From: a virus
Length of the DNA: 37,326 nt
Virus record (IMG/VR): IMGVR_UViG_3300025381_000007
Strand: one strand, 5' to 3'
A program made the position numbers and the translations under genes. Below, in pieces: positions 3,764 through 12,322 of this stretch. The first letter of the stretch is position 1, and each line of letters begins with the position of its first letter. The notes beneath the pieces were generated by a model. It saw only the letters and a list, made by a program, of their open reading frames with translations. It was not told the origin of the DNA and ran no database searches.

Positions 3764-3856
3764 GTAGCTCACTTTACATAACTTTACAATAAACTTGTTG
3801 ACACGCTGGGCAAGAGCTTGTATAATACACACATACACTAAAAAGGAGCACTCACT

Positions 3857-4114
3857 ATGCTTACAAACTGCACTGCTTACGCTAAAATTGTAACTGTAAA
3901 GCGCACTAATACTCAGCGTGTTTTAGTAACTTTTGATAATACAAAAAAGGATAAACATAACTGCATTATAGTTAATAGCCATAATGCTGTATATAAAAGC
4001 GGGGACATTATAAATTTGGAAACTTATAATGCACAACAACGGGCCCATGCTATTGCTACAACTATGCAAAGTGTTAGAGATACCCTGCGTGTCAAAAACA
4101 TTGTGCTAGTTTAA
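3857..4114 (+). CDS. Hypothetical early protein
   Basis: Promoter + AGGAG SD. Confidence 0.8.
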   Translation: MLTNCTAYAKIVTVKRTNTQRVLVTFDNTKKDKHNCIIVNSHNAVYKSGDIINLETYNAQQRAHAIATTMQSVRDTLRVKNIVLV

Positions 4115-4177
4115 AAAAAGACTTGACAGCGGCGCCGTTCCGCTGTATAATACACACTTAAACACTAAAGGAGCACT

Positions 4178-4405
4178 ATGTCAAAAGCACTTAACAAACG
4201 CATTGCCGACGCCTTCGCTACAATTTACGACCAGGGCGACAACGGGCTAGAATACATGGACGGCCATATTGCAATGGACCATGTGTTAATGGAGCATTTT
4301 TACAACGACACGCTAGAGACTCTAAACAAAGAGGACAAAACAAAAATGGCAGTAATGTTAGAGGAAGTTGTAAGCGATATGTCGTTTGACTTAGAGTCTT
4401 TTTGA
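4178..4405 (+). CDS. Hypothetical early protein
   Basis: Promoter + SD. Confidence 0.8.
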   Translation: MSKALNKRIADAFATIYDQGDNGLEYMDGHIAMDHVLMEHFYNDTLETLNKEDKTKMAVMLEEVVSDMSFDLESF

Positions 4406-4441
4406 TGTTATAATACACACATACACTAAAAGGAGCTGACA

Positions 4442-4657
4442 ATGTCTAACTACCCAAATATGAGCTATTGTATGTGCGAGAACACGCTGGCGGCCCTGCG
4501 TCAAGTGTTGAGCGCTATGCAGGAGGAAGGGCCCATGTTCCTGCAGGATATGAGCAGGGACGAGCGACGGGCTTTTGAACAGTTGTTCAACGCTTGCGAA
4601 ACTTTTGTCAATGTGGCAGAAGAGTTGGAAGAAGAGCTTGACACCGCTGAGTTTTGA
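4442..4657 (+). CDS. Hypothetical early protein
   Basis: Promoter + SD; NMSYCMCENT N-terminus. Confidence 0.8.
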   Translation: MSNYPNMSYCMCENTLAALRQVLSAMQEEGPMFLQDMSRDERRAFEQLFNACETFVNVAEELEEELDTAEF

Positions 4658-4694
4658 TAGTATAATACATTTTTAACACACAAAGGAGCTGACT

Positions 4695-4835
4695 ATGGAT
4701 TGGATAGAACTTGCGCTAGAGCAGATAGTTCGAGATGTTGAAGCAGGCGACTTGAGCGCCGTTGCTGAACTGTTGAAGTTTGTGCCCGAAGAGAATCTTA
4801 TTGCTTTTTTACCTGAGGAGATCCAAAATGCCTAA
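4695..4835 (+). CDS. Hypothetical 46-aa early protein
   Basis: Hand-translated MDWIELALEQIVRDVEAGDLSAVAELLKFVPEENLIAFLPEEIQNA; promoter + SD. Confidence 0.75.
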   Translation: MDWIELALEQIVRDVEAGDLSAVAELLKFVPEENLIAFLPEEIQNA

Positions 4836-5424
4836 TTGGTGCTATAACACTGTGGAACTGACCCACGAAGATCCCACTATGATTGCTCGTGCAAAGTCCG
4901 CGTTCTTAGACAAAGGCTTGCTCAATGAGTTCGTGCCCATTCCTGAAGAACTCAAGATCACCGCAGGCTGCTTAGGAGAAGGTGCTGAACAAGCGGCTCT
5001 CGAAGCACGAGAAGCAGCCAACTTGGAGAAGCATGGCTACCGCAACTGGTATGACTACTGCGTCAACGAGTGGGGTACCAAGTGGGATGTCACTGGACAA
5101 GAAGTCAACGATATCCCCAACGGTGTGATCCTGACCTTTGATTCGGCTTGGGCACCTCCCACTGGTGCCTATGACAAGCTCTTGGATTTGGGCTTTGAAG
5201 TTCGTGCTATGTATTACGAACCCGGCATGGGTTTCTGCGGTGTTTGGGACAATGGACAGGACGATGAGTATAGTTTGGGCGGCTTGAACAGCGATGAAGT
5301 AGCGGAGCTCTTGCCCCCTGAACTCGATGAAGCCTATGGTATCTCTGAGTCCATTGCTGAGTATGAGGACGAGGAAAATATCGACATCGAGTTAAACGGC
5401 GGTATTGACAGCATCAACGAATGA
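4828..5424 (+). CDS. DUF1281/YubB (Api92-like) ferredoxin-like domain protein
   Basis: MPNWCYN, WYDY..NEWGTKW, FDSAWAPP and YYEPGMGFCG motifs; SD GAGGAG. Confidence 0.75.
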   Translation: MPNWCYNTVELTHEDPTMIARAKSAFLDKGLLNEFVPIPEELKITAGCLGEGAEQAALEAREAANLEKHGYRNWYDYCVNEWGTKWDVTGQEVNDIPNGVILTFDSAWAPPTGAYDKLLDLGFEVRAMYYEPGMGFCGVWDNGQDDEYSLGGLNSDEVAELLPPELDEAYGISESIAEYEDEENIDIELNGGIDSINE

Positions 5425-5461
5425 CTGTATAATACATACTTACACACTAAGGAGCACCACT

Positions 5462-5836
5462 ATGCAATACTATGACACACTGACTAAGTTTGAACGCAAC
5501 GGTTTGACTGTCATCGTTGACAAGACCTATGAGGACTTGAGCCCACGGGACTTGTTTGAAGAATCGGATGTTGATGAGATCATCCGCAAGATTGATCGTG
5601 GCATCTACGATTGGTTTATGTTGCGTGTTCGTGTTATGTTTGAAGACTTGGAACTGGCTAGTGAGTATTTGGGTGGATGTTGCTATGAAGACGCCAAGGA
5701 AGTGCTCACTGACGGTGTTGCCGAAGACTTGATCTTCGAGGCCATGGCTCACGCCCAAAAGCGAGTCTCAGACTTGGCCAATAAGTTCACATTGAAAACT
5801 TGGGAACTGGCAATGGTTGACAAAGAGTTGGCTTGA
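5462..5836 (+). CDS. Hypothetical early protein
   Basis: Promoter + SD; start MQYYD. Confidence 0.8.
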   Translation: MQYYDTLTKFERNGLTVIVDKTYEDLSPRDLFEESDVDEIIRKIDRGIYDWFMLRVRVMFEDLELASEYLGGCCYEDAKEVLTDGVAEDLIFEAMAHAQKRVSDLANKFTLKTWELAMVDKELA

Positions 5837-5871
5837 TAGTATAATACATACTTCACAACAAGGAGAGGGCT

Positions 5872-6084
5872 ATGGCATATCGCGTTTTGGACACTGTGGA
5901 TCGTATGCGCGACAAGTATGGCCCCCGTAAGGGGCTGGAAGGTCCCTTTAACTTCTCGGGTCGTGTGTTGTACTATGATCCCAAGGAAGGGCAGTACTAT
6001 GATCCTACCACAGACTTCTATGTGAGCCAAGAGGATATGGATTTTATCAACAAAGAGTTTATGGATAGGTTTCGAGCGGCATGA
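5872..6084 (+). CDS. Hypothetical early protein
   Basis: Promoter + SD; YYDPKEGQYYDP repeat. Confidence 0.8.
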   Translation: MAYRVLDTVDRMRDKYGPRKGLEGPFNFSGRVLYYDPKEGQYYDPTTDFYVSQEDMDFINKEFMDRFRAA

Positions 6085-6302
6085 ATGAACGACTACAGTG
6101 GGCCGGCACGGCCTGCTTCATGGTGATGTACGTGTTAATGAGCTTCTTCCCTGAACTGCATCCTTGGAATGTGGTAGCGGGAACGTTAGGGGGCTTATTC
6201 TATATGGCATGGAGTCTGCGTGTCAAGAATCGGCCGCAGATCATTACAAACGGCGTAGGCATCACTGTCTGCGTCTGTGGATTAATAAAATATTTTGGTT
6301 GA
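6081..6302 (+). CDS. Small three-helix membrane protein
   Basis: Three hydrophobic segments; ATGA coupling. Confidence 0.7.
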   Translation: MNERLQWAGTACFMVMYVLMSFFPELHPWNVVAGTLGGLFYMAWSLRVKNRPQIITNGVGITVCVCGLIKYFG

Positions 6303-6348
6303 CAAAGCAGCGTTTTGGTTGTATAATACAATTTTAGGAGCAGCAGAA

Positions 6349-6585
6349 ATGATTCTAGCACACACTCTCAAGACACTTATCTCATTTGAAGCACCCATGC
6401 TGAGTAGTTTGGCTGGGGAAGAATACACTGGCGCTGAGTTCCTGGGTATCACCAACGGCGGCGAGTTTTGCTATACCGTAAACTTCCTGGTCAAAGGTGG
6501 CACTGACAGCAAAAAAGTATTCCTGAGATTTGATGCAGGCAGCGTGAAATTGGTTGACAAAGAACACGCTTGGCACTATAATTAA
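6349..6585 (+). CDS. Hypothetical early protein
   Basis: Promoter + SD; start MILAH. Confidence 0.75.
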   Translation: MILAHTLKTLISFEAPMLSSLAGEEYTGAEFLGITNGGEFCYTVNFLVKGGTDSKKVFLRFDAGSVKLVDKEHAWHYN

Positions 6586-6609
6586 GACTTACACACACTA
6601 GGAGCACAC

Positions 6610-6849
6610 ATGAAAGTATCAGCACTCATCGAAATGTTGCGTGACTTCCCAGAAGATGCCGAAGTCCATTTCTCGTATAACTACGGCGATCACTGGCGTA
6701 CTGAAGTCGCTCCCCGTGTGAACCAAGTGTTCGAGGGCATTGTCAAACATAGTGACTATCACCGTATGGACAAGCTCATGGACGAGCATGACATGTACGA
6801 AGATGAAGGCGACTTCGAAGGTACTCGCCGTGTAGTAGTTATTGGTTGA
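6610..6849 (+). CDS. Hypothetical early protein (V..LI..L.....D.EV family)
   Basis: Promoter + SD. Confidence 0.8.
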   Translation: MKVSALIEMLRDFPEDAEVHFSYNYGDHWRTEVAPRVNQVFEGIVKHSDYHRMDKLMDEHDMYEDEGDFEGTRRVVVIG

Positions 6850-6904
6850 CAGTTGAGCAAAACGGCGTTATAATATACACTTAAACACACTAGGAGTATT
6901 ACAA

Positions 6905-7372
6905 ATGGGAACACGAAGCACTATCGCATTGGAATTCGCAGACGGTACCGTAGAGCAGATCTACTGCCACTGGGATGGCTACTTGGAACACAATGGCGCT
7001 ATCCTGCGCGATCACTATTCAGATCCATTCGTATTGCGCGATTTGATTGACATGGGTGATATGAGTTCGCTGGGCAAGGTCATTGGTGAGGCACATCCGT
7101 TCAGCCCGCACTCTAGCCCAGAAGACAAGGCCCTGTACGAAGCCGCTCGTGAAGCAGGCTACTGCACATTCTACGCACGAGATCGTGGCGAGACTGGTGT
7201 AAGTGCCAAGAAGTTCGCAGACTTTGAGGACTACAGAAAGAATCACCAGTATGAAGAATACGAATACATCCTGCGCAACATCGACGGCCGGGCCACTTGG
7301 TTCGTTGATGATCACGGCGGCGGCTATGTAACATTGGCAGAAGCATTTCAAAAGGAAGAGGTCGCAGCATGA
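6905..7372 (+). CDS. Conserved phage hypothetical protein (MGTRS...YCHWDGY family)
   Basis: Recognisable motif; promoter + SD. Confidence 0.8.
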   Translation: MGTRSTIALEFADGTVEQIYCHWDGYLEHNGAILRDHYSDPFVLRDLIDMGDMSSLGKVIGEAHPFSPHSSPEDKALYEAAREAGYCTFYARDRGETGVSAKKFADFEDYRKNHQYEEYEYILRNIDGRATWFVDDHGGGYVTLAEAFQKEEVAA

Positions 7373-7542
7373 GCAAGATGAATGAACTGAACTACGAGAT
7401 TGAACAACTCTACATCGAGGGCTATCGCCCTTCGACCATAGCCACAAGGCTTGGCATCGCTGTGGACATTGTCTATCAGTGGATTGAAAACGAGAGCCTG
7501 GCTCAAAGTGAGTATGATCCCTACGAAACAATCAATTCATAA
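7369..7542 (+). CDS. Small helix-turn-helix protein (57 aa)
   Basis: Hand-translated ...LYIEGYRPSTIATRLGIAVDIVYQWI...; ATGA coupling. Confidence 0.7.
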   Translation: MSKMNELNYEIEQLYIEGYRPSTIATRLGIAVDIVYQWIENESLAQSEYDPYETINS

Positions 7543-7562
7543 GTGTTGTGAAAATACAACAC
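7543..7562. promoter_or_regulatory. Palindromic operator-like site (copy 2)
   Basis: GTGTTGT-GAAAAT-ACAACAC, 8 nt before a -35. Confidence 0.6.
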
Positions 7563-7657
7563 AAAAAGAGTTGACAGATAAACCATTTGACATTACAATA
7601 TATACATAAGTTGAAAGATCGACTTATATTTTTTAAACACACACAGAAAGGTATTTT

Positions 7658-8101
7658 ATGACTGATAAGCTCTTCTCCCACGCTGGTTTTTCCCTCCACA
7701 AAGGCTCTTACAAAGCTCGTTTCGCCAATGATGCTCTCCGCGTCAAGGTTCTCGAAAAGGATGGCCATACTGACATCCAAATGACTGCGTTGATTCAACC
7801 TTCTACCAAACAAGAAGCTGTTGAAGCACTGTTGAAGGCCAACTTCGCAGGTGAGAACGCATTGGCCAAGGCCGCATTGGAAGCCGAGTTGGACAAGCGT
7901 AGCGACGCTCCTAAAGCAGTAAAGGCCACTCCTAAGGCCAAAGCAGCTCCTAAGGCCAAGGCCAAGAAGGACATCACACTGGACTCTATCATGGCCAAGG
8001 CTATCACTAGCCCTGTAGAGATTCCTCAGGTTGCCGCTAAGGAAAAGTCTCGTGCAGAGATCCAAGCAGAATTGGATGCCATGGACGCCGCTCCATTCTA
8101 A
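7658..8101 (+). CDS. Hypothetical protein with Lys/Ala/Pro-rich histone-H1-like linker
   Basis: PKAVKATPKAKAAPKAKAKK. Confidence 0.8.
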   Translation: MTDKLFSHAGFSLHKGSYKARFANDALRVKVLEKDGHTDIQMTALIQPSTKQEAVEALLKANFAGENALAKAALEAELDKRSDAPKAVKATPKAKAAPKAKAKKDITLDSIMAKAITSPVEIPQVAAKEKSRAEIQAELDAMDAAPF

Positions 8102-8115
8102 CCCTGGTGTGACAG

Positions 8116-8144
8116 GAAAGGGGTTGACACAGCCCCTTTCTTCT
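8116..8144 (+). terminator. Terminator-like hairpin overlapping the next -35
   Basis: GAAAGGGGTTG-ACA-CAGCCCCTTTC-TTCT. Confidence 0.6.
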
Positions 8145-8172
8145 AGTATAATACAATTTTAGGAGCCGATCA

Positions 8173-8391
8173 ATGAGCAAGTTAGAACTATTTGGCCGTC
8201 CTTGGACACCATTCGATGCCTATAACAAAGACCATCGTCGTTGGTTCTTTGAGTTCCAAACTCGAAAGACTTGGGGTCATTGCCCAGTCCGTTTCATTAT
8301 TCCCGATGATGGTGGTGATTTGATTACTCTATGCCAACGACGTCTTGTGGACTTCTACAGCAAGAAAGAGTTTGGGCAAACTGAAGGTTGA
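8173..8391 (+). CDS. Hypothetical early protein
   Basis: Promoter + SD; WGHCPVRF motif. Confidence 0.8.
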   Translation: MSKLELFGRPWTPFDAYNKDHRRWFFEFQTRKTWGHCPVRFIIPDDGGDLITLCQRRLVDFYSKKEFGQTEG

Positions 8392-8434
8392 TTATAACGC
8401 TATCTCCTGTTATACTATATAAAAGGAGAAAACG

Positions 8435-8680
8435 ATGAGTTTTACAACATTGAAAACAACACAAAACGAGTTCTTGGAACAACACCTACGTGGTACAGGC
8501 CGCACAATGAGCGCCCGTCAAGCAGAAGTCACATATGGTATCAAGAACATTAGAGCACGAATGACCGAGCTTCGTCAAGCCGGTTTGAAGGTCAATCGCA
8601 CAGTGAACACAGAAGGCCGCAGTGCTTACTCTGTGAGCGCTCGTGACGTCAAAGGTAGCCGAGCTGCTATCTTTGCCTAA
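8435..8680 (+). CDS. Winged helix-turn-helix DNA-binding protein
   Basis: MSARQAEVTYGIKNIRARMTELRQAGLKV plus beta hairpin. Confidence 0.7.
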   Translation: MSFTTLKTTQNEFLEQHLRGTGRTMSARQAEVTYGIKNIRARMTELRQAGLKVNRTVNTEGRSAYSVSARDVKGSRAAIFA

Positions 8681-8681
8681 G

Positions 8682-8797
8682 ATTCGGGGGTAGTGTCCCG
8701 AATAGATCCCGATTGCTCCTCGGGATCAATGTTAGTGTGCCGGGGGTAGTGTCCCGGTTCTGGATAGGGCCGCTCGGGAGAGCCGCCCTATTCTTTT
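8682..8797 (+). ncRNA. Candidate four-hairpin small RNA (3'-UTR-derived) ending in an intrinsic terminator
   Basis: Stems at 8682-8703, 8705-8727, 8739-8758 and 8764-8791 (GGGA tetraloop, TCTTTT tail); identical GGTAGTGT loops in hairpins 1 and 3. Confidence 0.65.
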
Positions 8798-8847
8798 GGT
8801 TGCATTTTGGCTCGTTTGGTTGTATAATATACACATAGGGAAAAGAA

Positions 8848-8982
8848 ATGCAGTATACACTAATCACCCCAAAAGGCCAAATCTTACAATTCTTCCTGAA
8901 AGCAGTGGCCGAGCAGTTCCTACAAGCCTATGGCGGAACTCTAATAACAGACAAGATTTTGGTTGACACTGAGCAAGTTTGA
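8848..8982 (+). CDS. Hypothetical 44-aa early protein
   Basis: Hand-translated MQYTLITPKGQILQFFLKAVAEQFLQAYGG...; own promoter. Confidence 0.7.
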   Translation: MQYTLITPKGQILQFFLKAVAEQFLQAYGGTLITDKILVDTEQV

Positions 8983-9020
8983 CAGTATAATACATACATA
9001 GACAGCAAGGAGCACACACT

Positions 9021-9239
9021 ATGAACGAACGAATCGCAAAACTATATGACCAAGCAACCATTTTAGAAGGCAATGGCGACTACGTGGCAGGTGAGTTGGA
9101 TCCTGTAAAGTTCGCCGAGTTGATTGTGAAAGAATGTGCTCAAGTTGCTAATTTGACTGAAGACTATGATACTGATGATTATAAATCAGGACGGCAGTGG
9201 TCAGCATTTGATATTAAAAACCATTTCGGAGTTGAATGA
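9021..9239 (+). CDS. Hypothetical early protein (MNERI...FAELIV.EC family)
   Basis: Promoter + SD. Confidence 0.8.
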   Translation: MNERIAKLYDQATILEGNGDYVAGELDPVKFAELIVKECAQVANLTEDYDTDDYKSGRQWSAFDIKNHFGVE

Positions 9240-9303
9240 TGATTGGTTGACATCCTGCCCAAACGGCAGTATAATACATACATCGCAACAAGGAGCACAC
9301 ACC

Positions 9304-9600
9304 ATGGATTGGAACTTAGAAGGCAAGCGCATAAACGGTATCTACTTGGGCTTGTTCCCCTACAAGGGTATGGTCATGGAAAGCCGTGTCAAGTACGGTG
9401 GACAAGTTCAGCATACCGTGGCGCTGGACGAGACTATCAAGGTCTTCGGCGAAGTCCGCGAATACATCCTTGTGGATACAGGCACTGGCGAGATCAATCG
9501 CATCCTGGACGAGCAGGACGACATGTTCGATCGTATGACCCCACAAGAGCAAGAAGACTTCATCAACGGCTACGAGTCAGCCAAATATTACGGCGCTTGA
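9304..9600 (+). CDS. Hypothetical early protein
   Basis: Promoter + SD; start MDWNLEG. Confidence 0.8.
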   Translation: MDWNLEGKRINGIYLGLFPYKGMVMESRVKYGGQVQHTVALDETIKVFGEVREYILVDTGTGEINRILDEQDDMFDRMTPQEQEDFINGYESAKYYGA

Positions 9601-9631
9601 CAATACTCCCAAAAGGCAGTATAATACACAC

Positions 9632-9853
9632 ATGAAACAGAAAAAGCAATACCAAATCATGCGAGAGACCACTATGTGGGAGGATGGCCTAATGGACACA
9701 GGGCGTCATGTCTACGTGTTCACAGACTACAAGCCCAACGCACGAGCAGCCACTGTGGTCGCGTTCTCAGGCTTTGGACGCCATCCTGTTCGCAAGTATC
9801 CCAAACCCCTAGTCATTGACCTGCGCGGTCGCACATTCGAGGAAGTAGTATGA
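9632..9853 (+). CDS. Hypothetical early protein (probably leaderless)
   Basis: ATG 6 nt after TATAAT. Confidence 0.75.
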   Translation: MKQKKQYQIMRETTMWEDGLMDTGRHVYVFTDYKPNARAATVVAFSGFGRHPVRKYPKPLVIDLRGRTFEEVV

Positions 9854-10065
9854 ACAAAGAAGAAATCACCGTCACTGGACTTACACCTATCCAAAAGATG
9901 ATCTGCGAACTCCTGTGGAAGATGCCTTCCATGCACGCCGTAGAAGATCTTTGCCGTGCGGGTGGACCAGAATACTATGCCATGCGTGATCTCATGGTAG
10001 CGGCCCATTTTGACCGAGATGACACCCTTCAAGAAGGCCTCAAAGAATGGTTGACAAGCCTTTGA
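9850..10065 (+). CDS. Hypothetical early protein
   Basis: ATGA coupling; SD GAGG. Confidence 0.75.
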   Translation: MNKEEITVTGLTPIQKMICELLWKMPSMHAVEDLCRAGGPEYYAMRDLMVAAHFDRDDTLQEGLKEWLTSL

Positions 10066-10105
10066 AATTCGGTTATAATACACTCATACACACTAAGGAG
10101 CTATC

Positions 10106-10444
10106 ATGTACGACTTTATCCGCCCTATGGAACTGAAAGACGCTATCAACTACCTAGGCGCCTCTCGCAAAGCCTACAACAAGAACACAGGAGAAAAGCT
10201 CTCCTTTAAAGGCGCCTTTGACATGATCGACGAGTGTGCCTGTAATGTGGGCACCAACAAGGACTTGGCCATGATGAAGGCCATCCGAGCTTATATCACA
10301 GCTGAGTTGGAGGAGCGTGAAGCAGAGCTGTGGAAGCTGATGGCATCGGTGGTAGACAAGAACGCCGTTAACAAGATGCTCAAAGATGATACCCTGTTTG
10401 AAGACAGCGACGAATATCAGATGGCTGACGAAGAATGCTATTAA
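10106..10444 (+). CDS. Hypothetical early protein
   Basis: Promoter + SD. Confidence 0.8.
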   Translation: MYDFIRPMELKDAINYLGASRKAYNKNTGEKLSFKGAFDMIDECACNVGTNKDLAMMKAIRAYITAELEEREAELWKLMASVVDKNAVNKMLKDDTLFEDSDEYQMADEECY

Positions 10445-10483
10445 ACGGTTGACAACACCATCAAACTCAGTTATAATACTGAC

Positions 10484-10726
10484 ATGAAACAAAGAAAGGA
10501 AATCAAAATGGATATTTACACTCGTCGCGCTGTATACAAAGTTCTGGGACTGGTTGCTATGAGCTGTGCCGTTGGTGCTTTCACAGCGGCTTTGATCGAC
10601 ATCATTGGCCTCTCAGCAGTGGGCGGCCTATTCACCCTAGCACTCTTAGTCTACCTCTGCTACCACATGGTCGTCAGCGATGCTGAAGCCCAACGCAGTC
10701 AAGCTCGTTTGAAAGAAATGGAATAA
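10484..10726 (+). CDS. Two-helix membrane protein (alternative start 10508)
   Basis: Two hydrophobic segments; promoter. Confidence 0.75.
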   Translation: MKQRKEIKMDIYTRRAVYKVLGLVAMSCAVGAFTAALIDIIGLSAVGGLFTLALLVYLCYHMVVSDAEAQRSQARLKEME

Positions 10727-10730
10727 CACT

Positions 10731-10853
10731 ATGAACAAAACCGCGAAAAGCTCTACCGGCGGCACTATCACTTACACAAAGACTGGTCTGATTCACCGTG
10801 CTGGCCAAGCCTATAGTGGAAAAATCGCACAGCAGGAATCCAAGAAGCGATAA
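10731..10853 (+). CDS. Hypothetical basic 40-aa protein
   Basis: Hand-translated MNKTAKSSTGGTITYTKTGLIHRAG... Confidence 0.6.
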   Translation: MNKTAKSSTGGTITYTKTGLIHRAGQAYSGKIAQQESKKR

Positions 10854-10861
10854 ATAATTTC

Positions 10862-11155
10862 ATGTATATAGTAACCACCACACTGACCCGAGTGACCACA
10901 TCTACTCAGTGGTATGATGATTTTAATCCCGTAGGCTATCAAGGCTATTTGGATTACATAACCACACAGACCGGCTTCATAAGTCTAACTGACGCTAGGC
11001 CCGATGATTTCACTAGGGTCAGGGTTACAACCTTTGACAACCAAGCCAACTACGATGCATTCATGAGCAGTGCCTATCGTAGTGAAGAACTACTAGATCT
11101 AATGACCTATATCTTCCAAGAAGGCATTCAAATCGATCTCAAAGAACCTGAATAA
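10862..11155 (+). CDS. Hypothetical protein, late-promoter class
   Basis: TAAATA 5 nt upstream; no SD. Confidence 0.7.
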   Translation: MYIVTTTLTRVTTSTQWYDDFNPVGYQGYLDYITTQTGFISLTDARPDDFTRVRVTTFDNQANYDAFMSSAYRSEELLDLMTYIFQEGIQIDLKEPE

Positions 11156-11219
11156 AAACGGTTGACACACCCGCCCTTTGACAGTATAATACACACATAC
11201 ACAGCAAGGAGCACACACT

Positions 11220-11417
11220 ATGAAGAATCCCGTCCCCCACAGCTCAATGTTCGCCACTCCCATTAACTTGGAAGCTCTCTTGCTCCAAATTGATACGATT
11301 TCCAACCGGAGTGAGCGAGCCACCGTTATGACCTACGTCATGATGGCCTTGAACACCGCACATAATTTAGTTGAACAAGAACTTGAAAATGTGGTTGACA
11401 TCTTGGAACGTCCGTAG
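11220..11417 (+). CDS. Hypothetical early protein
   Basis: Promoter + SD. Confidence 0.8.
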   Translation: MKNPVPHSSMFATPINLEALLLQIDTISNRSERATVMTYVMMALNTAHNLVEQELENVVDILERP

Positions 11418-11455
11418 TATAATAACACTCATACACACACTAACAAGGAGCTAAG

Positions 11456-11677
11456 ATGTTTAAGACAGATGCACAAGTAGAGTTTGAAAAGATCCTCAAA
11501 GAGTTTTCCGCTGTGACCTACGAAGTCTACGGCAACCATTCCTACGCTACGGGCTACTACGAAAGCCTTATGACTGAGATGTTCCGTAGCTTGAGCAAGA
11601 AGTCACAGCAAGAACTGATCCGTGACATGGACTCAGCTGTAGAACAACAACATGAAAAGATGTTGACACAAGCCTAA
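11456..11677 (+). CDS. Hypothetical early protein
   Basis: Promoter + SD. Confidence 0.8.
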   Translation: MFKTDAQVEFEKILKEFSAVTYEVYGNHSYATGYYESLMTEMFRSLSKKSQQELIRDMDSAVEQQHEKMLTQA

Positions 11678-11723
11678 TCCGGCTGTATAATACATACTTG
11701 TTTAACACACTAAGGAGCACACT

Positions 11724-11903
11724 ATGAAAAACAAACTAACAGTAGCAGAATTGATCGCAATCTTGAGCAAGTTGGATGGCACGATGGAAGTTGAGATTGG
11801 TATGAACCAAGAATACCAACGCGGTATTGATGCTGAAGACATTCGTGTTGAGTCGTTTGATTTCCACAACAACGGCGAGCCGTATGTGTTTATCGGCGAT
11901 TAA
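11724..11903 (+). CDS. Hypothetical 59-aa early protein, related to 6610-6849
   Basis: Hand-translated MKNKLTVAELIAILSKLDGTMEV...VFIGD; promoter + SD. Confidence 0.75.
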   Translation: MKNKLTVAELIAILSKLDGTMEVEIGMNQEYQRGIDAEDIRVESFDFHNNGEPYVFIGD

Positions 11904-11974
11904 CCCTAGAGGTTGACAGAAGTCTAAAAGAGCAGTATAATACACACATGTTAAACACAAAGCAGGAGCAAAAA

Positions 11975-12322
11975 ATGGAACTCACAGCACAGCAAGTAGA
12001 AGCTATCGTTCAAGACGCTATGATCACGGCCCGCGAGGCAGCACAGCGAGCCTTGGCCCAACACGGCGACGCAGATGCCTGTGGCTTTGCTTGGGTCAAC
12101 ATCTGGGAACACAATGGTAAGAAGATCCGTGCTAACAGCAAGCTCGGTAAGGCGCTCATTGCGGCAGGTGTTCGCAAGGACTACACGGGCGCCTACTGCC
12201 TGTGGAACCCCAGCAAGTTGGGTGTGCAAAGCATGGGCATACTAGAAGCAGGCGCATACGCAGCCGCAGAAGTATTCAAGCTCAACGGATTTACTGCCTA
12301 CGCTGGCAGTCGTATGGACTAA
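11975..12322 (+). CDS. Conserved phage hypothetical protein (CGFAWV family; alternative start 11948)
   Basis: DACGFAWV motif; SD AGGAG. Confidence 0.8.
   Translation: MELTAQQVEAIVQDAMITAREAAQRALAQHGDADACGFAWVNIWEHNGKKIRANSKLGKALIAAGVRKDYTGAYCLWNPSKLGVQSMGILEAGAYAAAEVFKLNGFTAYAGSRMD

Follow-up and report, generated by a model that had tools for sequence, protein, structure and literature searches.

A conserved multi-hairpin RNA behind a winged-helix gene of uncultured freshwater phages and its possible role as an anti-leader small RNA

The DNA analyzed in this study is a stretch of 37,326 nucleotides from a virus (IMG/VR record IMGVR_UViG_3300025381_000007), referred to in its whole length as the window, and it represents the left end of an uncultured freshwater giant-phage record. 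Its plus strand carries, at 8682-8797 and directly behind a gene for a small winged-helix protein, an element of four hairpins and a linker (Table 1), and our computational analysis identified this element as a member of a structured-RNA family that has no Rfam entry and is present in dozens of IMG/VR phage contigs. Loops and linker of the element are complementary to leaders of an array of early promoter cassettes, within whose span the winged-helix gene lies. The record nearest to the window, designated G001, is 130,850 bp long and 36% complete according to CheckV; positions in G001 are converted to window positions by adding 141. A T4-type large terminase, a DnaB-like helicase and a UvsW-like helicase are among the phage genes, and one structural protein distantly resembles proteins of PA5oct-type giant phages.

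Table 1. Features of the winged-helix/RNA locus and the surrounding promoter array, in window coordinates (MFE, minimum free energy structure)
Feature	Position	Strand	Description
Early promoter-leader cassette array	3798..11975	+	consensus promoters; putative targets
Promoter-like site of winged-helix/RNA unit	8388..8416	+	TTGATT-17-TATACT with TG, 9/12 matches
Winged-helix gene, 81 amino acids	8435..8680	+	Pfam HTH_39, E 3.6e-6
Hairpin 1 (H1)	8682..8703	+	stem AUUCGGG/CCCGAAU, loop GGUAGUGU 8689-8696
Hairpin 2 (H2)	8705..8727	+	stem GAUCCCGA/UCGGGAUC, loop UUGCUCC 8713-8719
Linker	8728..8738	+	AAUGUUAGUGU, unpaired in MFE; contains UGUUAGUGU, also written UGUUAGUGUG
Hairpin 3 (H3)	8739..8758	+	second GGUAGUGU hairpin, loop 8745-8752
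Hairpin 4 (H4)	8762..8793, U-tract to 8797	+	terminator-like stem, GGGA tetraloop, UUCUUUU tract

The element begins 2 nt past the TAA stop codon (8678-8680) of the winged-helix open reading frame (ORF) and is situated between this codon and an intrinsic terminator, a location that is the same in relatives. RNAfold analysis of the plus strand from 8670 to 8810 gave -62.7 kcal/mol (z = -4.14), and none of 200 shuffles was as good. An earlier note, made from the letters of the DNA alone, had described four hairpins here, with twin loops, a UUGCUCC loop, a linker and a terminator capped by a GNRA-type tetraloop (GGGA), and both the sequence and the RNAfold prediction agreed with that description. 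The outer stem of H3 (GCC/GGU, including a G-U pair) differs from that of H1, and GGTAGTGT occurs in the window at these two hairpins only. Both are closed by a G-U pair in the MFE structure, so that possibly only 6 nt (GUAGUG), and not 8 nt, are open in the loop. For the minus strand, a stable fold was likewise obtained (-54.8 kcal/mol, z = -5.7); a U-tract follows the last hairpin on the plus strand only. No Rfam family matched the window at gathering thresholds, and a search of 8400-9000 at E ≤ 10 returned six weak, unrelated rows, none of them C4, the best being sX14 with 19.5 bits, where the gathering score is 80. ARAGORN identified no transfer RNA or transfer-messenger RNA. A YUNR loop motif was considered and dropped, being inconsistent among the loops, and putative resemblances to a tRNA D-arm and to the 16S 790 loop were dropped as well.

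Relatives of the element were collected from IMG/VR. A 16-mer from H1/H3 matched 40 stretches, corresponding to 33 distinct sequences, and in 26 of these 33 the common element lies just past a stop codon, while the other seven are chance matches. The gene 5' of the RNA is mostly one for an 89-amino-acid relative of the window winged-helix protein, located behind the same 72-amino-acid gene as in the window. A search with the winged-helix protein, covering 80 loci of an estimated 1,400 stretches, yielded 71 distinct downstream regions of several forms. In the commonest form (form 1), UCGCUCC, GAAGU, a hairpin with the core GGGGGUAGUGUCCC, GCAAACCCCC and a terminator follow one another, with 6-7 nt between CGCUCC and the hairpin. 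Form 2 consists of a lone CCG-AUUCGCUCC-CGG hairpin within an outer stem and then a terminator. Type B, with eight members (the window, L157, L007, L035, L017, L027, L110 and L131), has a GGUAGUGU hairpin, a second hairpin with a YYGCUCC loop, UGUUAGUG (present in seven of the eight) and a terminator. L157, the one member added by a pattern search for type B, has the entire four-hairpin layout of the window, including the same third hairpin, on other stems, and a terminator almost identical to H4 is found in L007 and L035. Many of the remaining loci have a terminator alone, and some have a third hairpin type (CGCUG-hairpin-CAC).

The comparison of these relatives indicated that the element is under selection as an RNA structure of the plus strand, with loops kept and stems covarying. 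The core GGGGGUAGUGUCCC of H1 is retained while its outer stem covaries, and the YYGCUCC loop of type B is carried by eight quite different stems of 7-8 bp. Among the eight type-B members, 97.1% of the cells are paired compared with 68.6% in shuffles (0 of 500 as high), both sides change in 10 of 14 pairs, and the covariation score is 0.74, compared with 0.23 for shuffles and no more than 0.15 for slid controls. Stem covariation around fixed loops, which the earlier note had named as a check, was accordingly found. Four G-U or U-G cells in this count would be A-C on the opposite strand, which assigns the structure to the plus strand. A covariance model (R1) built from five relatives scored the window element at 52.7 bits (E 8e-14) and detected a single copy in the 130,850 bases of G001. 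Searches of cultured phages by blastn, with the locus and with the element of a relative, gave no match. In bacterial genomes there was a single match (L195), on a 2,649-bp contig binned into a Syntrophomonadaceae metagenome-assembled genome; this contig is probably a piece of phage DNA and not a copy carried by a host, and it provides neither a clue to the host nor a host RNA of this sequence.

Several further variants were observed among the relatives. In form 1 (e.g. L036 1517-1540), the conserved C-run GCAAACCCCC lies past the GGUAGUGU hairpin and ahead of the terminator, and an alternative structure is conceivable in which it pairs with the G-run on the 5' strand of this hairpin. L006, L029, L043/L044 and L009 have an extra middle hairpin between GCUCC and the GGUAGUGU hairpin; its loop is (CA)UCGCGUA in L006, L029 and L043 and UGCGAUG in L009, roughly the reverse complement, as if inverted, and a second leader subtype has a word, CAUCGCA, to which UGCGAUG is antisense. 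The third element type past the winged-helix stop codon (L084, L085, L089, L095, L097, L099, L105, L107, L111, L132 and L136) consists of (U)CGCUG, a hairpin of 5-6 bp whose stems covary (with loops such as AUUCACA), CAC and a terminator; in the phages bearing it, consensus promoters are few and GGAGC leaders absent.

The promoter array of the window comprises 18 perfect TTGACA-N17-TATAAT promoters on the plus strand between approximately 3.8 and 12 kb, compared with 0.04 expected, and the total is 21 once TTGACT and TACAAT hexamers are admitted, including a promoter at 1139-1167 outside the span of the array. Downstream of each early promoter comes a leader that is short, CA-rich and of the type ACAUACACUAAGGAGCAC..AUG. 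These leaders are near-identical, and each perfect sigma70 promoter in the array serves one small ORF; terminator-like sites on the plus strand of the array are few (one of the six scored). The region resembles the promoter-early stem-loop (PeSL) cassettes described as units of T4-type phages (PMC2839356) and fits their definition, namely strong promoters repeated with stem-loops.

The words exposed by the element are antisense to the words shared by these leaders. UAGUGU of the H1 loop is antisense to the leader tag ACACUA, the H2 loop together with its closing U is antisense to the extended Shine-Dalgarno (SD) word AGGAGCA, and the linker is antisense to (C)ACACUAAC(A), the next base, G8739, already being part of the H3 stem. 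ACACTA has 48 matches in the window compared with 23 expected, and AGGAGCA has 16 compared with 3.8 expected. Ten of the latter are within early leaders, the number that the earlier note had counted; the ACACUA leader positions which it listed were all found, with the qualification that those at 9016 and 11215 overlap the start codon instead of lying upstream of the SD. Its central claim, that the loops are antisense to the shared leader, was supported by matches to the commonest leader 7-mers at a level above that of shuffled loops: in the leaders of phages bearing GGUAGUGU, AGGAGCA is the top 7-mer (72/186) and ACACTAA the fifth (53/186). In the window, 17 of the 21 promoter-defined early leaders contain a complement of at least 6 nt to single-stranded segments of the element, compared with a mean of 3.2 for composition-preserving loop shuffles (p ~0.001), and 14 of the 21 contain a complement of at least 7 nt, compared with 0.8 for the same null; the linker accounts for a 7-nt complement in 11 of the 21. 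The summed energy of the bipartite duplex was -18.6 kcal/mol for early leaders and -13.3 kcal/mol for 52 other gene starts of G001 (Mann-Whitney p 1.8e-5), and shuffled loops averaged -12.2 kcal/mol, with 0.2% of them as good as the observed ones.

The C that follows GGAG was found to be a trait of the early class. GGAGC occurs in 15 of 17 early leaders of G001, compared with 4 of the 27 non-early G001 genes that have GGAG, the others having GGAGA (14), GGAGT (7) or GGAGG (2). In a set of 530 leaders, the triplets after GGAG were CGA (78), CAC (45), CAG (38) and CAA (26).

Leaders were also tallied between clades, with one locus for each distinct winged-helix protein. The 30 loci bearing GGUAGUGU contributed 186 leaders, in which AGGAGCA occurred in 72, ACACTA in 80, GGAGCGA in 4 and GGAGC in 103. 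The 14 loci with AUUCGCUCC only (form 2) contributed 82 leaders, with AGGAGCA in 1, ACACTA in 8, GGAGCGA in 47 and GGAGC in 53, and the full 8-nt complement of the form-2 loop, GGAGCGAA, was present in 32 of these 82. The 58 loci without an RNA motif contributed 114 leaders, with AGGAGCA in 7, ACACTA in 5, GGAGCGA in 2 and GGAGC in 15. Leaders of the own clade were paired better by the form-2 loop, by the linker and by the H1 loop.

The promoter-like site upstream of the winged-helix gene is weaker than the perfect-consensus early promoters, a TG precedes its -10 hexamer, and the -10 hexamers of relatives at the same promoter are likewise off consensus (TATACT or TATTAT). The leader of the winged-helix gene, AAAAGGAGAAAACG (AAAAGGAGAAAACGATG), contains neither ACACUA nor GGAGC, as the earlier note had stated for the window, and the exemption extends to all clades inspected, in which the SD of this gene is of the AAGGAAA type without GGAGC. 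In most relatives (L112 ~1564-1610, L128, L074, L036 and others) the winged-helix leader has a conserved 5' hairpin, e.g. CGCUGUUAGGGAACAGC or ACUGC..GCAGU, followed by AACAAAGGAAAC; the window leader is shorter and has no 5' hairpin. An AlphaFold model of the protein displayed an H-H-H-E-E topology at low confidence (pLDDT 61). Foldseek found weak matches to winged helices of the MarR/Fur type (best E 0.086), which are silent on RNA versus DNA binding, and a profile search with the protein sequence found no match in the PDB.

Coupling of the RNA to a gene for a DNA-binding protein, as proposed in the earlier note, is usual, the common neighbor being an HTH_39 gene, but it is not obligatory, since the RNA is retained without the winged-helix ORF at five distinct loci. 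In three of these (L009, L017 and L021) the RNA lies directly behind the 72-amino-acid gene, and in two (L012 and L022) behind a different gene; in L017, where the ORF was lost, it is located immediately 3' of a TTGACT-17-TATAAT promoter. The RNA is therefore kept for its own sake, and a role in trans accounts better for its retention without the ORF than does a cis effect on the winged-helix mRNA.

In lytic phages, early genes are switched off by proteins, for example RegB, RegA and anti-sigma factors. Our analysis points to a possible RNA route to the same end. We judge the chances to be about even that the element is an anti-leader small RNA (sRNA) of the 3'-untranslated-region (3'-UTR) type that represses the early regulon by a mechanism like that of the c4 RNA of phages P1 and P7 and in a role like that of RegB. 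According to this reading, the winged-helix transcript would end, on its 3' side, in a conserved structured RNA made up of the four hairpins, and this RNA may accumulate either by being cut from the mRNA or, as the arrangement in L017 suggests, from a promoter of its own. Acting in trans, the exposed GCUCC(U) and UAGUGU would pair in the infected cell with the GGAGC-type ribosome-binding site and with the ACACUA tag. Such pairing with the 5' ends of most early messages would be expected to block their translation rather than to stabilize them, and it could time the shut-off of approximately 15-20 early genes, as RegB does in T4 by cutting GGAG sites.

On a wider scale, there is a somewhat less than even prospect that a tag-and-silencer system of this kind operates in uncultured T4-like and giant phages of fresh water, in hundreds of them. 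Their early messages would carry a 5' tag and an extended ribosome-binding word, and a single modular sRNA, encoded beside an exempt winged-helix regulator, would present sequences antisense to both in its GC-clamped loops and shut off the early regulon after infection, with tag and loops evolving together between clades. Such a system would represent an RNA counterpart of T4 RegB/RegA.

A number of observations weigh against the anti-leader sRNA. Four of the 21 window leaders have no 6-nt match. The H2 loop of the window pairs slightly better with the leaders of the other clade than with those of its own (-10.5 vs -9.4 kcal/mol), and form 1 keeps UCGCUCC, which matches GGAGCGA, though its leaders read GGAGCA, leaving only 5 + 6 bp. 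The co-variation of loop and leader amounts to one independent contrast on the tree of the winged-helix protein, and for the presence of the RNA versus GGAGC leaders, independent-pairs tests, which are underpowered, provided four supported pairs, of which ~3.2 were concordant (median p 0.25). The expectation of the earlier note that loop changes would match leader changes is consequently borne out in part: the sister clade combines the AUUCGCUCC loop with GGAGCGAA leaders, while the evidence is a single phylogenetic contrast and the H2 loop is not clade-specific. A loop-blind search anchored on the 5' flank returned 33 stretches, of which 25 were true, and GGGGGUAGUGUCCC, a 14-nt hairpin core that includes three stem pairs, was identical in 25/25; the flanks GAAGU and GCAA(A)CCCC are also conserved. 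Because this invariant core and its flanks exceed what a 6-nt seed needs, it is likely that a protein binds there or that a tertiary contact is made. A scaffold-anchored pattern intended for new loop variants returned only the same loop. In addition, the alignment behind the pair counts of the type-B members was fitted to the model, and the sequencing runs listed for the locus comprise 24 of freshwater DNA and none of RNA. The sRNA interpretation of the earlier note is partly supported, as regards structure, complementarity and the specificity of GGAGC for the early class, and is weakened by the single contrast and by the lack of own-clade specificity of the H2 loop.

The invariance of the core could alternatively be due to a platform of protein-binding hairpins, perhaps a nut-like antitermination site, to which the leader complementarity would be secondary. 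A phage or host protein would bind the GGGGGUAGUGUCCC hairpin, which is invariant, and in relatives also (U)CGCUCC, which is single-stranded and located 6-7 nt upstream of it. Candidates are the winged-helix protein, an N-like factor and Nus factors, and their binding would modify RNA polymerase or form a ribonucleoprotein. We consider this reading rather unlikely. It would account for the 14-nt core being identical in all 25 true matches with conserved flanks, and for the tight linkage to the winged-helix gene at most loci, and the order of small helix-turn-helix (HTH) gene, CGCUCC, spacer, GC hairpin and terminator is like that of the familiar lambda cro-nutR(boxA, boxB)-tR1, where single-stranded boxA is the kind of site bound by NusB:NusE. 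Yet GCUCC lies within hairpin loops in the window, in type B and in the AUUCGCUCC clade instead of on a 5' single strand at fixed spacing, the window has no CGCUCC 5' of H1 at all, and the loops of 7-9 nt are unlike the pentaloops of boxB. Read-through would be unneeded, as the downstream genes have their own consensus promoters; the RNA persists at the five loci without the winged-helix ORF; and the 8-nt match of UUCGCUCC to GGAGCGAA in 32 of 82 leaders would be left unexplained. It is clearly unlikely, in our judgment, that the element is an ordinary 3'-end structure, in which stabilizing hairpins and a terminator shield the winged-helix mRNA and insulate the next cassette, and in which the match to the leaders is a by-product of G/U-rich loops meeting C/A-rich leaders homogenized by recombination. 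The position exactly between stop codon and terminator is what such a structure would have, 58 of the 102 distinct loci have no motifs and many of them only a simple terminator, the co-variation is a single contrast, and recombination between PeSL cassettes has been published as a cause of uniform leaders (PMC2839356), which also counts against the sRNA as an alternative source of leader uniformity. Protective hairpins, however, would show the opposite of what is observed, namely loops conserved on wholly changed stems; loop shuffles seldom match the observed complementarity (p ~0.001; 0.2% on energy), two separate clades each fit their own leader word, and the element is kept after loss of the upstream ORF.

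Two other readings concern the DNA duplex and the opposite strand. Were GGAGC(GAA)/ACACTA a double-stranded operator, bound by the winged-helix protein downstream of each early promoter and present in inverted copies behind its own gene, the apparent antisense relation would follow from a DNA site being equal on both strands, a protein of DNA-binding type is indeed encoded next door, and the middle hairpin of L006, L029 and L043 resembles the reverse complement of that of L009. Motifs in loops framed by covarying inverted repeats, with G-U pairs marking one strand, are nevertheless unexpected for duplex DNA; the two words, adjacent in leaders (ACACUAAGGAGCA), are split in the element over separate loops and the linker, and the RNA is present without the protein gene nearby, so that we regard an operator as very unlikely. 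Extremely unlikely is a minus-strand transcript that acts as a decoy by showing leader-like ACACUACC and GGAGCAA loops to a leader-binding factor. The minus strand does fold, and a weak promoter-like site on it (8880-8852, TTGGCC-17-TATACT, 9/12 matches) is aimed into the element, but such promoter-like matches are common by chance (37 found vs 14.6 in shuffles), no U-tract lies behind the hairpins on this strand, the G-U pairs of the family are in the plus sense only, and the neighboring genes and consensus promoters are all on the plus strand.

The principle on which the anti-leader sRNA would act, an RNA that displays anti-ribosome-binding-site sequences in its loops, is already known; what would be new is the modular, regulon-wide form aimed at a phage's own early leaders. 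The c4 RNA of phages P1 and P7 blocks translation of a phage mRNA through loop sequences that pair with its ribosome-binding region, and between related phages a different loop goes with a different target (PMC12197685). The statement of the earlier note that no phage system like this had been described did not hold, since it overlooked c4, which applies the same principle to one target. The element resembles c4 (immI; Rfam C4) in being a small structured phage RNA with loops complementary to ribosome-binding regions, here in 17 of 21 leaders. It differs in having no sequence or structure homology to c4 and no Rfam C4 match, in that c4, which is processed from a precursor, acts on one transcript (icd/ant) in its own operon while ~17 matching leaders are here dispersed over ~8 kb, and in being a modular RNA with one to three seed hairpins, located in a 3' UTR, whose function is predicted. 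The phage sRNAs tabulated in a 2025 review have one target or a few each, and for none of them is the target the early regulon of the phage itself (PMC12197685, Table 1); our literature searches returned no description of such a system.

With RegB, and with the RegA repressor, the predicted sRNA would share the property of hitting many early messages at once through a short SD word. RegB is a protein nuclease aided by S1, whereas here RNA would pair with GGAGC and a 5' tag, with no cleavage implied. In T4, RegB inactivates many early messages via GGAG in the SD region, middle and late messages escape, and the regB gene is itself early (PMC3014915). As for PeSL cassettes, the element differs from them in being single-copy in 130 kb, in lying outside promoters and in having conserved loops rather than conserved stems.

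Bacterial sRNAs derived from 3' UTRs lie at the 3' end of an mRNA, share its terminator and have their seeds upstream of the terminator hairpin. The element is like them in that a stop codon precedes it and the intrinsic terminator of the same mRNA ends it, and unlike them in that the seeds are repeated, are displayed in GC-clamped loops and have the phage's own early regulon as their predicted targets. With nutR of lambda, as its layout is generally known, it shares a small HTH gene, a single-stranded CGCUC-type word, a spacer, a GC hairpin and a terminator; here, the word is often in a loop or, in the window, absent, the loops are longer, the hairpins are several, and downstream genes have promoters of their own. 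The nut arrangement of boxA at a fixed distance 5' of boxB, with the boxA consensus taken from general knowledge, was not found in the window; no N-like protein was identified, and none was sought. Sponges such as CsrB/RsmZ likewise have several hairpins repeating one short loop word, but the plus-strand loops GGUAGUGU and UUGCUCC contain no GGA, which is found only in the terminator tetraloop GGGA, and the words of the element complement mRNA leaders instead of copying them.

If a conserved RNA recognizes a shared leader tag in this way, phage development would have a further, post-transcriptional timer, and there would be a reason for the conservation of the leaders outside the SD proper and for the unusual C that follows GGAG. 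Tags and the silencers matched to them would, in addition, provide a set of parts that is compact and orthogonal. Whatever its function, the element is a structured-RNA family fit for inclusion in RNA family libraries.

The cassette next to the element in the window, that of the ORF at 8848-8982, was observed to have no GGAGC/ACACUA leader; on the plus strand between 8800 and 8850, it has a perfect TATAAT (8823-8828), a weak -35 hexamer (TTGCAT) and an SD of the GGGAAAAG type.

Among cultured phages, a tblastn search with the winged-helix protein of a relative identified a homologue in Pelagibacter phage HTVC008M alone (46.6% identity). Three hairpins lie behind the homologue gene (L158 1425-1520; KC465899.1 ~91768-91863), with the loop word CUCGUAAAU in at least two of the three. 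HTVC008M was considered as a second test case and rejected, as ATTTACGAG, the complement of this word, occurs twice on the forward strand and neither occurrence is in a leader. The homologue gene adjoins a phage-encoded gene for ribosomal protein S21.

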